From Eledone cirrhosa (Eukaryota), in the NCBI GenBank assembly GCA_964016885.1, contig OZ024751.1, forward strand, positions 29,326,001-29,390,000: a stretch of 64,000 nucleotides of DNA, read 5' to 3'. Below are positions 12,235 through 55,899 of this stretch, one piece after another. The notes beneath the pieces were generated by a model. It was not told the DNA's origin. It made no database searches and saw only the letters and a program-made list of their open reading frames with translations. Position numbers and translations under genes: made by a program. Position 1 is the stretch's first letter. Each line of letters starts with the position of its first letter.

Positions 12235-12411
12235 CGACGGCAGAGCTCAAGCCGTTTCGACGGCTATTTCTGGACTCAGAAATAGCCGTCGAAACGGCTT
12301 GAGCTCTACCATCGGGGTCATACTTTTTCCTATTTCCCACTCTACTATGCTAAGTATTGAGTACTCTGGTGCGTTATGGTCCATCTGGTTCCTTACCACA
12401 ATTCCTTTATT
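12235..12411 (+). mobile_element. hairpin-plus-tail element family C, copy 1
   Basis: 38-bp arms at 12235-12272 and 12277-12314 (two mismatches, 4-nt loop), then the conserved tail ttcctatttcccactctact...attgagtactctggtgcgttatggtccatctggttccttaccac; flanked by (TA)n. Confidence 0.85.
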
Positions 12412-12623
12412 ATATATATATATATATATATACACACACACACACACACACATATATATATATTTATATATACACATATACATATAATAGGGTATAAGTA
12501 TTGCGAGAGAGGAAGAAGCTGAGAGATACAGAGAGGTGCGATACAGATTACTAAATGCCAATAGCCGAAGCGGGTTGTGCTCAACGGTATTTATACTTAT
12601 TGATGACATTATATTATCAATTA

Positions 12624-12663
12624 TTTCTCTGAAGAGTCTGTGTGGGTGAAACATGTGTAAGAG
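12624..12663 (+). ncRNA. minimal type I hammerhead ribozyme, decayed, in a Penelope-like terminal fragment (about 12487-12715)
   Basis: ttct-CTGAAGA-gtct gtgt gggt-GAAAC-atgt-GTA-agag. Core intact; stem II mostly G-U pairs. Confidence 0.6.
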
Positions 12664-13797
12664 CTATATAAAGAACTTGTTCTAATGGCTTGTAACTCCT
12701 TCATTCATTTGCACATATACATATATCTGTGTGGGTGTATGTATATATATATATATGTATATATATATTCATATATCTGTGTGGGTGTATGTATATATGT
12801 ATATATATATATATATATATATATATATATATATATACATACATACATACACCCACACAGATATATGAATATATATATATATATATACATATATATATAT
12901 ACATACACCCACACAGATATATGAATATATATATATATATATACATATATATGTATGTATATATGTGTGTGTGTGTATAATATATATATATATATATATA
13001 TATTCAGTGTTCTGTAAACTTCTACTGACATCATTGAGTGAGAGAAACTGCTATATTATTCGTCAACAATGGAGGTGTACGTACGTATGAATGATCGCAT
13101 GATGGTAGGTGGGGGGCAACGAATTAATGAAGAGAAGCATCTGATCTTAGCAAAAGAAAAAAACAACATTTCTAAAACCATAATTCATTTTTCTAAGAAG
13201 AAAATTAGATTTGTTACTTTTGGTTTTGTCTTGTTTTGTTTTCTAAAAATACAAAACATTTCTGAGATTAAATCACTCTAATTTAATTTTCAATGAGGTG
13301 TGATTCACTGGGGTAATTTTTAAAAATGTTATTATTATTTTTTTTAAATTGTTTTTAATTAGAATCTAGTAACTTATTATTATTATTATTATTATTATTA
13401 TTTGAAACTTCCTTTGAACTCTGCTTCTTTCCCCAAATCATGCCGAGTGTCAACCTGACACCTGAGGCAAAATTTGATGATACACATATTTTACAATCTA
13501 TTGTCATACAAATGATGCCACTAGGGCACAAGCAGCATTTAATATCTTTGCAAGGTATTTAAATTGATAATGCCCTTATCAGAAGATGGACAGTGCCAGT
13601 CAACACTATTTTCTGTATTTCTTGCAGAGATGGCTTTCCAGGTATGCAGTTCAGATATTTTTTTACTTCCCTTTTTTATCATTCCAAATGAGGCCAAAAC
13701 CCACTTTGTATCATCCTGTGCCGTCTGTAATGTTTTTCTTCATGTTAGCCCTTGTGGCCAATAAAGAAACCATTATTGTTATTTGTACCAGTAATTA

Positions 13798-14240
13798 GGT
13801 CGTTGGATTGGCAGTATCGGTAGAGGGTTGGACGCCATGCTTTGCAGCATAGAGTTATGGCCCTTTATGATCTGAGTTCAAATCCCGCCGAGGTTAATTT
13901 TGCCTTTCATCCTTACGGGGTCGATAAAATAAAGTACCAGTCATGCACTGGTGTTGATTTAACCCTTTAGCATTCACATTACTCTATATATACTATTATA
14001 TTTTCCTGCTAAAGGCTTTACCTCACATAATATCTCACATAATATCGAATCTATGAGATTTTGAAAGTATTTACTTTGATAACAATACCTTAACATCAGT
14101 TTGAGTAACCAGTTACAGCCAGTTTCAACAGAAAGAGGTAGAGAATTCTGGCCAGTTTGAACATTAAGGGGTTAATCGACACCCCCCCCCCAAAAAAAAA
14201 AAAATTTCTGGCTTTGTGCCTATATAAGAAACCATTATTA
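13798..14240 (+). mobile_element. SINE family A, long-tail form, interrupted by a piggyBac-like MITE
   Basis: A-box tggcagtatcggt, B-box gagttcaaatcc, core gccgaggttaattttgcctttcatccttacggggtcgataaaataaagtaccag; split at gatTTAAtcgac. Confidence 0.9.
13963..14171. mobile_element. piggyBac-like MITE nested in a SINE
   Basis: TTAA|ccctttagcatt...acattaagggg|TTAA; the TTAA of the host SINE is duplicated. Confidence 0.85.
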
Positions 14241-14310
14241 TTAGTACCAGTAATGTACTGGGTAATTGCTGGCCTTGTGCCAAAAGTAGAAACAATTATT
14301 ATTATTTGAA

Positions 14311-14510
14311 GTGGCGGTGGATTGGCAGTATCAGTAGAGGGTCGAACACCACGTTTTGCAGCATAGAGTTATGCCTCTTTACGGTCTGAGTTCAAATCCT
14401 GCCAAGGTTAACTTTGACTTTCATCCTTACGGGGCCGATAGAATAAAGTACCAGTAATGCACTGGGATAATTGCTAGCGTTGTGCCAAATGTAGAAACAA
14501 TTATTATTAT
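14311..14510 (+). mobile_element. SINE family A, full length
   Basis: A and B boxes, core, tail gtgccaaatgtagaaacaa(tta)n. Confidence 0.9.
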
Positions 14511-15119
14511 TTGAAGTAATGTATGTAGAGATGTGCACCTCACATCCCTGGCCCGTCTCCCTGGGCTGTCTAAAAGATTAGGGGCGCCAAATAATTCCAC
14601 ACCTGGTTTGTGATGACCCCAAACTTGCTAGCAAGGAAAGTGAATCTTTAATGACAATGATGATGGTGACGGTAGTGATGATGATGACGGTGATGATGAT
14701 GATGATGTGGTGATGATGCTGATGGTGAAGGTAGCGATGATGATGATGATGTGGTGGTGATGTTGATGGTGAATGTGGTGATGATGATGATGATGATGAT
14801 GTGGTGGTGATGTTGATTATGATGATGGTAACAAAACAAAAAGATAAATAGAATGAGTGTTTTGGAATATTATTGGTAACATGTCATGAACACATTACCC
14901 CCAGGCTGCTTAAGGATGGACACCATTCTATTCCTCTTTCTCTGCCTAGAACAACAATCTGGGTCATTCTGACAATATATTAAAATGCAGTACCTGAACT
15001 GATCTTCTCCTTGTTTTACCCTTTAACAAACATCCTGGTTACTCAACATGTTTATTACATATACTCAATAGCCAACCTTATCATACAGTAAAAGTTTTTT
15101 GCAGAAAAAAAAAAATAAT

Positions 15120-15300
15120 AGTAATGGTTTCTGGTTTAGGCTCAAGGCCAACAATGTTGGAGGAAGGGAAAGTTGATTTAATCAACCTCAGTGTATTACT
15201 GGTACTTTATTTTATTGACCTTGTAAGGATGAAAAGTATAGCTAACCCTGGAGGGATTTGAAGTTAGAACATAAGGGATGTAACAAAATGTTGCGAAATG
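15120..15300 (-). mobile_element. SINE family A, decayed
   Basis: Reverse match to the tail and core. Confidence 0.75.
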
Positions 15301-15461
15301 TGGTTGGCATTTGGAAGGGCATCCAGCCATAGAAATCTAGCCAGAAACAGTTCTATATGAGCAAGACATGGTCACCTGACCCAACTTGCCACTAATGGGA
15401 CAACTTGTCTAACCTCTGCTATCGTGGAAAATGGACATTAAACAATGATGATGATGATGAT
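15300..15461 (+). mobile_element. RTE family 1-type tail fragment
   Basis: ggaagggcatccagccatagaaa...gagcaagac...ggaaaatggacattaaacaa(tga)n. Confidence 0.8.
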
Positions 15462-54407: not shown

Positions 54408-54522
54408 TTATTTATTTACTTATTTTCTATGTGGATGTATATGTGTGTGTGTGTGTATGTCTTGATGTGAGTGCGTATACGTGGCTGTATGTGTGTATAT
54501 ATATATATATATATATATATAT

Positions 54523-54693
54523 AACGAAGGAAATGTGATAAGGAACCAGGTGGACCATAACGCACCAAAGTACTCAATACTTGGGGTAGTAGAGTGGGTA
54601 ATAGGAACCAGTAAGACCCCGACGGCTGAGCTCAAGCTGAATTAGCCGTCGAAACGGCTTGAGCTCAGCCGTCGGGGTCTTACTGGTTCCTAT
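54523..54693 (-). mobile_element. family C, copy 4
   Basis: Reverse tail, then hairpin 54601-54693 with perfect outer arms ataggaaccagtaagaccccgacggctgagctcaagc / gcttgagctcagccgtcggggtcttactggttcctat; (TA)n on both sides. Confidence 0.88.
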
Positions 54694-54844
54694 ATATATA
54701 TATATATATATGTTGAGACACATAAAGGTTTTAGTTTTCATTAAGGTCACATTATGTACAACACATATTTTATGATAATTTCTCTGCTAGAGCAAGGATT
54801 GGTCTTGGAAGACTCATGACAACTTTTAGACACATCATCGGGAT

Positions 54845-55036
54845 ATACCTGATCTGAATATAAGCAGACCCCCGCTCAATTCTATGTCTGAGAAATAAGC
54901 AAAAATCCAAACCCTGTTTATAATCTGAGGCAGGTAACCAACACAATGTTTAGATGGCATATATAAGTTAAGCACCCATTTTACTTTGTTTTTTTCCTCG
55001 ATCACATATTCCTTGGCTTATATTCAAGTATATATT
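54845..55036. mobile_element. TIR MITE, homologue of 63365-63584
   Basis: Shared tatgtctgagaaat...tttataa...gaggcag...tagatggcatatata and right end ggcttatattcRagt. Confidence 0.7.
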
Positions 55037-55237
55037 CTATATTTTCTTTTTTGTGGTATTTTTTTATAGTTGATTACCCTTCCTGGTGATAACACTTTTA
55101 TTTGCCCCTCAAGACCCACACAGATACAATGTTGTTGTTGTCATTGTCGTCATCATCATTATCATCATCATCCGTTCTCCCAGCCAGCAAATTTGGTACC
55201 TATTTTGATCTGGAAACACTTGATTCTTAGATATATA

Positions 55238-55450
55238 TCGGGCAGGTAAAATTCCCGAGATCCATGGACAAGTTCTCTCCAGCGGTCTCTGTCCCTCATC
55301 ATCGCTGCCAAGTCCTGCATCTCCAAGAGACCAGTGTCTGTCCTTAGGTCATCAACATATGTCAACCTCGGTCTCCTTCTTTTAGTATGTCCATGCATGG
55401 GGCTCCCACAAGAGCACTGAATGCAGTGTCAACTCTGGATGTCGGTGAGC
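55238..55450 (-). mobile_element. RTE-like LINE family 4 C-terminal fragment
   Basis: LWEPMHGHTKRRRPRLTYVDDLRTDTGLLEMQDLAAMMRDRDRWRELV, an RTE-type RP-x-x-TY-x-D...DR-x-x-WR motif. Confidence 0.78.
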
Positions 55451-55531
55451 ATATATATATATATATATATATATAAATAAAATAAAATAAAATAAATAAG
55501 TCAAATATTTAAAATTTGGCTTTTTTTATTG

Positions 55532-55584
55532 CTGCTATATATATTTCGGTGACAGCCATCTTTGGCTGTGACCTCTTCAGGCAG
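55532..55584 (-). ncRNA. type I hammerhead ribozyme, near intact, in a Penelope-like terminal fragment (about 55510-55715)
   Basis: Minus strand ctgc-CTGAAGA-ggtcacagcca aaga tggctgtcacc-GAAA-tatat-ATA-gcag, then AATAAA. 11-bp stem II with one mismatch. Confidence 0.82.
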
Positions 55585-55732
55585 TCCGAATTGGTGTGGT
55601 AGAGACGGGTACACCTGTTGTTGAGGTGTTTAACTTTGTCAATACTCCGATATGCCCAGTTCCTGGTTAGGTTGTTATATACTGAGGTGTCGGTAAACAC
55701 CCAACATATACTAAAAATATATATATATATAT

Positions 55733-55899
55733 ATAGGAAAAAGTATGACCCCGACGGCAGAGCTCAAGCCGTTTCGACGGCTATTTCTGGACTCTGCCGT
55801 CAGGGTCATACTTTTTCCTATTTCCCACTCTACTACCCTAAGTATTGAGTACTCTGGTGCGTTATGGTCCATCTGGTTCCTTACCACAATTCCTTTGTT
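55733..55899 (+). mobile_element. family C, copy 5
   Basis: Hairpin 55733-55821 ataggaaaaagtatgaccc / gggtcatactttttcctat with the inner right arm deleted, then the conserved tail; (TA)n on both sides. Confidence 0.88.

Follow-up and report, generated by a model that had tools for sequence, protein, structure and literature searches.

A hairpin-and-tail repeat in (TA)n runs of Eledone cirrhosa, a probable non-coding miniature of Hydra-clade Penelope-like retroelements

Insertions of Penelope-like retroelements comprise an inverted, 5'-truncated copy and a tail on one side, and those of the Hydra clade, an octopus member included, are located in (TA)n; in the sections of Craig 2021 used here (PMC8557442), this target is given for every Hydra family with a stated preference, and a hammerhead is described as universal in Hydra elements. 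A repeat of 160 to 190 nucleotides (nt) with the same (TA)n targeting, head-to-head inverted 5'-truncated copy, and one-sided tail is present in Eledone cirrhosa, in a stretch of 64,000 nt (contig OZ024751.1 of assembly GCA_964016885.1, positions 29,326,001 to 29,390,000, forward strand) that is hereafter called the window and consists of AT-rich, microsatellite-dense animal DNA with repeats of octopus-like appearance. Unlike the described Hydra-clade elements, the repeat has no open reading frame (ORF), has only the 3' half of a hammerhead, carries a tail of 80 nt, and starts almost invariably with AGTCC. It is probably a non-coding miniature made of the pseudo-long terminal repeat (pLTR) and tail end of a Hydra-clade Penelope-like retroelement, and, as part of the same reading, reverse transcription on both strands of the target from nicks in a TA run is its likely origin.

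Such two-strand priming has been demonstrated in another clade. In the parts of Frangieh 2024 on which we draw (PMC11167929), the purified Penelope protein Poseidon PAc of Anolis makes nicks in both strands of AT-rich DNA in vitro and extends them, starting from two internal sites of the RNA that enclose the tail, and its insertion is independent of hammerhead cleavage; the window repeat would be alike in both respects. The Poseidon PAc start sites are non-homologous to the target, whereas those of the window repeat and its relatives coincide with TA(T) overlaps, and those parts of the study report no head-to-head miniatures. Short, non-coding, pLTR-derived elements that depend on a Penelope protein are described as animal non-LTR retrozymes (in the sections cited of bioRxiv 10.64898/2026.07.22.740005) and as MRC1-type elements of Chlamys (PMC8557442). 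These form head-to-tail tandems, with a whole type I hammerhead in each retrozyme unit, whereas the window repeat, with half a hammerhead, is dispersed and palindromic, and all five of its copies stand singly, head to head.

Five copies of a fold-back with a common tail

As originally predicted, copies lie at 12235, 25059, 49229, 54523, and 55733 of the window (copies 1 to 5 in this order), and blastn found no sixth within it. Each is a fold-back with the tail attached, located in TA runs. The predicted common tail was borne out, with 2 to 7 of 62 aligned sites differing among copies and the last few bases missing from copy 3. In copies 1, 3, 4, and 5, an inverted, 5'-truncated copy of the 3' end stands head to head with the arm that bears the tail. 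Copy 2 does not take this form: it has a 55-nt palindrome of its own and shares with the other copies only the tail, which differs from the tails of copies 4 and 5 at 2 of 62 sites, and ~17 nt beside it. The tail is present on one arm only, and the opposite arm stops at TAT. The element is asymmetric and lacks both a terminal inverted pair and poly(A), as had been noted, and the absence of a coding region was also upheld, no mobile-element ORF being evident by eye among the 89 window ORFs of at least 120 amino acids. An Rfam search with the element gave no match.

The claim that the two arms match within a copy held for copies 3, 4, and 5, which keep both outer arms; there, outer-arm mismatches numbered 0/22, 0/20, and 1/20, respectively, compared with 3 to 5 per 20 to 22 sites between different arm types. 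The outer arms of copy 1 are not comparable because its tail-less arm lacks its outer 20 nt, and copy 2 has no matching outer arm. Over whole overlapping arms, the arm alignment gave within-copy mismatches of 2/36, 2/34, 0/37, and 1/30 in four copies. The companion claim, that arms are unlike between copies, stood for the three outer-arm sequences that had been quoted but not for copies 1 and 5, which belong to one arm type (0 to 1 differences in 20). One-sided shortening of the hairpin was confirmed, the tail-bearing arm being the shorter one in copies 3, 4, and 5.

The predicted contact with (TA)n applies to most ends, with the exception of the tail end of copy 3, which adjoins a piece of another repeat. 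A (TA)4 run is touched by both ends of copies 4 and 5, by the tail ends of copies 1 and 2, and by the arm end of copy 3. Approximately 13% of window positions lie within 6 nt of such a run, and the contact of the copy ends is thus far above chance. Any target-site duplication in the window copies would be masked by the surrounding (TA)n.

Sequencing runs were aligned to copy 4 as reference, and the resulting contig and read counts are not copy numbers. Matches were found for 18,038 contigs in one host run and 25,607 reads in another; two runs from other organisms gave no match at the 80% threshold, which does not demonstrate absence there. Variants at mirror sites of the two arms were alike in run X1: 54609 C>A (31%) and C>G (31%) compare with 54685 G>T (31%) and G>C (29%), and 54614 A>G (32%) and A>T (8%) with 54680 T>C (32%) and T>A (10%). 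One mirror pair was uneven in run X1 (1% vs 38%) and even in run X21 (31% vs 33%). These frequencies fit matched arms in several subfamilies and leave linkage within a copy unproven. A second subfamily with AGTT instead of AGTC at the arm start (before 54643) was represented by 113 contigs and 1,522 reads, with the same start point.

The tail motif and its Hydra-clade relatives

The tail contains the motif TAT-N6-CTCTAC-loop-GTATTGAGYAC, which is predicted to form a bulged hairpin (7 of 8 folded tails, at an energy that is not unusual). A pattern derived from the window tail gathered at least 119 loci, with repeats of animal type, from metagenome contigs, of which 9 of 64 parts were scanned, and 27 viral loci; the exact tail pattern had no match in the metagenome contigs. 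Among the metagenome loci, six families (56, 18, 16, 6, 4, and 2 members) and 17 singles were distinguished. TAT at positions -9 to -7, which lies outside the search pattern, was present in 98 of 117 metagenome loci, in none of the 27 viral loci, and in 5/5 window copies. The base pair that flanks the motif on the outside was G-C in 105/117 loci and A-T in all five window copies. A hammerhead pattern occurred no more than 130 nt upstream of the motif in 29 of the 71 loci with enough flank, compared with 0/112 downstream and 0/25 among viral loci. On these sequence comparisons, the motif and its register likely tie the window element to Hydra-clade Penelope-like retroelements.

Two motif loci, L013 and L023, flank ORFs of Hydra-clade Penelope proteins that are 75% identical to each other. 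The 707-amino-acid ORF of L013 (647-2767, P0001) ends 170 nt before the motif and is followed by a hammerhead and the motif. L023 begins with the hammerhead and the motif, and its ORF (169-2421, P0002) starts 99 nt further on, an order that makes the tail the element's own 5' leader. The hammerhead and a protein stretch of L023 agree letter for letter with Penelope-1_NV, a Hydra-clade element, over the stretches printed in the supplement of PMC8557442; the tail motif and the TAT register are thus common to the window element and Penelope-1_NV. Both ORFs are uninterrupted. ORFs in two other loci, L015 and L029, proved to be host genes (polycystin and P450) and were set aside.

The motif was also sought by eye in the portions seen of six Hydra consensus sequences. 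Hydra-2_Amil has the window tail motif almost exactly, behind its hammerhead, and loci that resemble it carry the same motif, with TAT one base apart in part of the family. Hydra-2_Ajap and Hydra-1_Crog have versions with an altered yet pairing inner stem, and in Hydra-1_Ajap and Hydra-1_Crog the motif stands at the 5' start. Hydra-1_Obim and Hydra-1_Ajap end at TATA before any tail. The available 3' end of Naiad_Obim did not match the element by eye.

The relatives have the anatomy of the window copies. We compared 58 of the 71 loci, in five families with a reference sequence (13 were left out); no two of the loci have a common flank. An inverted tail-less arm was present in 33/58, and its outer end lay at -7 or -8 in 26 of these 33, the register of the window arms. 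The inverted arm was the longer in 15 loci and the direct arm in 9, and 9 had equal arms. Among 75 arm 5' ends, 26 fell within a 7-nt window at the A of TCATT, 10 to 12 nt before the hammerhead core, a clustering that suggests a putative transcription start. The initiator consensus is YYANWYY. Short tandem duplications occur at the head-to-head joins of L082, L090, and L042, as would be expected of end joining with templated inserts.

Target duplications were sought in the 30 loci with the usual arm end, of which 5 had too little flank and 25 were testable. A flanking repeat of at least 11 nt was found in 24/25; 18 passed the filter for non-simple sequence, and 14 were clear by eye, at 12 to 18 nt and mostly running from TA to TA. 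Control cross pairs had such repeats in 13/186. The earlier inference of a non-coding mobile element that targets TA and takes both arms from one template is borne out.

Coordinates of the window copies are collected in Table 1. An element with terminal inverted repeats and TA flanks lies at 49406-49603, next to copy 3, with a partial copy at ~49144-49232; a diverged 90-nt piece of this element is fused to the tail of copy 3 on the opposite side. We take it to be a mariner-type miniature inverted-repeat transposable element (MITE) from its appearance. Upstream of the copy 2 palindrome, ~135 nt of non-simple DNA (24924-25058) contains several small hairpins and ends at a TA/GA run, and its resemblance to the repeat unit is not significant. 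The 143 nt upstream of that palindrome were considered as a diverged arm and rejected: 45 and 268 of 1000 shuffles scored no lower, and the window background scored higher. Positions ~24500-24750 and 49670-49850 presumably hold repeats similar to short interspersed nuclear elements, of a type familiar from octopus genomes.

Table 1. Parts of the five copies in the window
Copy	Part	Position	Strand	Basis
1	Inverted tail-less arm, from AGTCC 5' start to one base past GTC triplet; outer 20 nt gone	12235..12276	-	Sequence, arm alignment
1	Tail-bearing arm, 4 nt short at 5' end; hammerhead-like 3' half; ends TAT	12277..12333	+	Sequence, arm alignment
1	80-nt tail; bulged-hairpin motif starts 12340	12334..12413	+	Tail alignment, motif search, folding
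2	Different body: 55-nt palindrome 25059-25113, then spacer similar to copies 1 and 5; ends TAT	25055..25134	+	Sequence, blastn, alignment
2	80-nt tail; motif at 25141	25135..25214	+	Tail alignment, motif search
3	Tail; last few bases lost at join with piece of TA-flanked inverted-repeat element	49226..49299	-	Sequence, blastn
3	Tail-bearing arm, 5' end cut short	49300..49333	-	Sequence, arm alignment
3	Inverted tail-less arm; ends TAT, enters (TA)n	49334..49387	+	Sequence, arm alignment
4	80-nt tail; motif starts 54594; end fused with (TA)n	54521..54600	-	Sequence, motif search
4	Tail-bearing arm, 5' end cut short	54601..54637	-	Sequence, arm alignment
4	Inverted tail-less arm; ends TAT, enters (TA)n	54639..54693	+	Sequence, host reads, arm alignment
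5	Complete inverted tail-less arm; 2-nt overlap with other arm at join	55733..55793	-	Sequence, arm alignment
5	Tail-bearing arm, last 30 nt only	55792..55821	+	Sequence, arm alignment
5	80-nt tail; motif at 55828; end fused with (TA)n	55822..55901	+	Sequence, motif search, folding

Weighing the Penelope origin

Several results weigh against a Hydra-clade origin. The link to Penelope rests on ~25 bases, and the loci that support it were gathered with a pattern from the window tail itself. A profile that includes the motif scores the window copies at E values of only 0.017 to 2.3, their tails fold no better than shuffled sequences (z +0.6 to -1.1), and the tail is longer, at 80 nt, than the ~60 to 70 nt of the relatives and the 30 to 40 nt of the literature. 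The viral control is weak, in that 24 of the 27 viral loci have common flanking bases and probably represent few lineages. Searches of Pfam, NCBIfam, and PDB sequences gave no informative match for the L013 and L023 ORFs; the octopus element Hydra-1_Obim, as far as its sequence was seen, did not match the window element by eye or by motif search; and no partner ORF was found, that is, no ORF with a reverse transcriptase plus GIY-YIG at the C terminus in or beside the window copies. In the largest relative family, arm mismatches within and between copies (22/871 vs 295/10074) were not clearly different; in two smaller families the arms were more alike within copies than between them (3/308 vs 46/1250 and 4/132 vs 18/132 mismatches). 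The hammerhead counts on the same side: no complete pattern is present in any of the five copies, the hammerhead-like 3' half of four copies arises in 0.5 to 3% of shuffles, and a hammerhead-only profile misses all of them.

By eye, the palindrome of copy 2 resembles a near-complete hammerhead, from which it departs by one mismatch in the core and 4 additional bases, and it failed the helix III test. The tail-less arm of copy 1 stops one base past a GTC, the would-be hammerhead cut site, a single case with one base ambiguous. Elsewhere in the window, a separate canonical-looking hammerhead (46108-46152, plus strand) has the core, a 4-bp stem II, and GAAA, and is set in ~190 nt of DNA that is not simple sequence, flanked by (GA)-rich arrays; it lacks the tail motif of the repeat and is likely the end of another Penelope-like insertion. 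Because the repeat has no whole hammerhead, and because its link is a short motif and the partner element in the host genome is presumed, we file it as a derivative that likely behaves like a Hydra-clade insertion rather than as a member of the clade proper.

Under the same Penelope origin, the palindrome could alternatively result from self-priming, in which a single cDNA would fold back to serve as its own template and the uneven centres would reflect subsequent deletion from an unstable palindrome. This alternative competes only with the two-primer step, and we regard it as unlikely, within the confidence given to the Penelope origin as a whole. Long palindromes tend to lose their centres. 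Self-priming has been proposed for head-to-head Penelope palindromes (Arkhipova 2013, PMC3846280, in the part consulted), and long palindromes like copy 1 are common in the host, since the tail-bearing arm continues beyond the copy 4 break in 5,508 reads. The junctions speak for two primers: in 8 of the 15 joints listed from host contigs (72 others stand outside the list), varying tail positions are joined to one tail-less arm start, and the letters between are overlaps of 0 to 4 nt with AGTCCA. The convergence on one arm start means that both arms stem from one unit that starts near AGTCC. A near-complete tail-less arm there meets a cut tail, with the second arm wholly absent; the joint table is blind to shortening of the other arm. 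These contigs, and the varying choice of the longer arm in the relatives, agree poorly with the earlier idea of one arm serving as template for the other; later deletion could also produce such contigs, and fold-back copying is therefore weakened only. Further points against self-priming are that the end of the tail-less arm is a constant internal TA of the RNA, which overlaps with the target duplication, and that extension of both strands has been demonstrated in vitro (PMC11167929).

The original prediction had named a Crypton-like, a Helentron/HINE-like, or an undescribed system as candidates, none of which is supported, as the tail motif and register point to Hydra-clade Penelope. A non-autonomous Helentron would, like HINE/DINE-1, be an asymmetric non-coding repeat with a 5' fold-back, the arm end serving as a 5' subterminal inverted repeat (subTIR) with an inner inverted repeat and a stretch near the tail end as the 3' subTIR; nine arm-end bases of copy 4 indeed complement a stretch ~20 nt from the tail end. 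This complement shrinks to 5 bases in copies 3 and 5, whereas HINE subTIRs measure 12 to 15 bp, no 3' palindrome or 3' stem of more than 4 bp follows in the folds, and the flanks are TA and not TT (HINE features from the sections cited of PMC4067079). With the Penelope-end motif and the duplications in relatives, which HINE insertions lack, also left unexplained, the Helentron reading is largely refuted and has only a slim chance. Some Cryptons target microsatellites, a trait that was not found in the Crypton text cited below, and DIRS elements have an internal region complementary to both termini. If a tyrosine recombinase moved the repeat via a circle, as a non-autonomous element of the Crypton or DIRS type, the lack of a terminal inverted pair would be accounted for; terminal repeats are absent from animal Cryptons, and non-autonomous derivatives of these exist (PMC3212892, portions cited). 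No recombinase link was found, no tyrosine recombinase was evident by eye among the window ORFs, and no internal region complementary to both ends appears in folds or self-comparisons; the variable 5' cuts with short overlaps and the duplications in relatives instead indicate reverse transcription at the target, so that we hold this origin to be very unlikely. The portion of PMC5753468 consulted for an Eulor/Crypton hairpin-tail link gives no hairpin structure. Somewhat less improbable, though still improbable, is an element of an undescribed kind that owes the likeness between its tail and the Penelope motif to chance or capture: the motif is short, no full hammerhead or partner was found, and copy 2 pairs the same tail with another body. 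Against it, three features outside the search pattern agree, namely the register of TAT, the point at which the arm ends, and the pairing of the outer base.

The repeat is likely neither a new class of element nor a new DNA transposon. The Penelope-like insertion type is already known; what is apparently new, not having been found in the literature searched, is the palindromic miniature with half a hammerhead, together with the conserved motif in the tail. No description of the family, of a conserved Hydra tail hairpin, or of a TA-to-TA duplication appeared in the open literature searched, and subscription journals, Repbase, or Dfam may hold one. The main text of Craig 2021 (PMC8557442), as far as searched, has no match for 'stem-loop' or 'initiator', and the parts consulted of PMC8967140 and PMC5753468 add nothing on the family, the hairpin, or the duplication.

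A proposed insertion geometry and its significance

We propose that the repeat is made from a short RNA that would consist of the near-fixed AGTCC start, the hammerhead 3' half, a variable spacer of 13 to 15 nt, TAT, and the 80-nt tail. A Penelope protein, presumably encoded by an autonomous partner in the host, would dock on the conserved bulged hairpin of the tail and nick both strands of a TA run, and both nicks would prime on the one RNA. From one target strand, synthesis would begin at the TAT that precedes the hairpin by 7 nt and yield the tail-less arm; from the other, it would begin at TTAT of the tail end and yield the tail and second arm. Both cDNAs would extend toward the 5' end of the RNA and terminate at differing positions, and overlaps of 0 to 4 nt would connect them head to head. 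The expected outcome is arms that match within a copy but differ from one source element to another, centres that are uneven, and a TA...TA duplication of 13 to 14 bp that is masked in (TA)n.

A more far-reaching version, possible but doubtful in our estimate, is that replication acts on the full palindrome as its unit, which would make it a self-renewing 'Penelope MITE'. Joining of two complete arms would rebuild an initiator-like centre (CT+AGTCC fits the initiator consensus), so that each copy could restart the same short RNA with no need for a hammerhead. Such a copy would carry only the hairpin docking signal that Hydra-clade proteins would use across animal phyla. If true, a 30-nt signal and two TA start sites would constitute a minimal cis-element for two-strand priming.

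The short motif helps to classify an abundant repeat that annotation tools likely leave unknown or label as a MITE. For the origin of the inverted ends and tails of Penelope insertions, this family and its relatives supply a simple, testable geometry: a conserved bulged hairpin, a start site 7 to 8 nt before it and a second at the tail end, a favoured 5' end close to an initiator-like motif, and a TA-to-TA stagger of 13 to 14 bp. From this geometry follow a 150-nt RNA and a target with which a Hydra-clade protein, such as P0001 or P0002, could be assayed in vitro, and the thousands of natural junctions could discriminate two-strand priming from self-priming.

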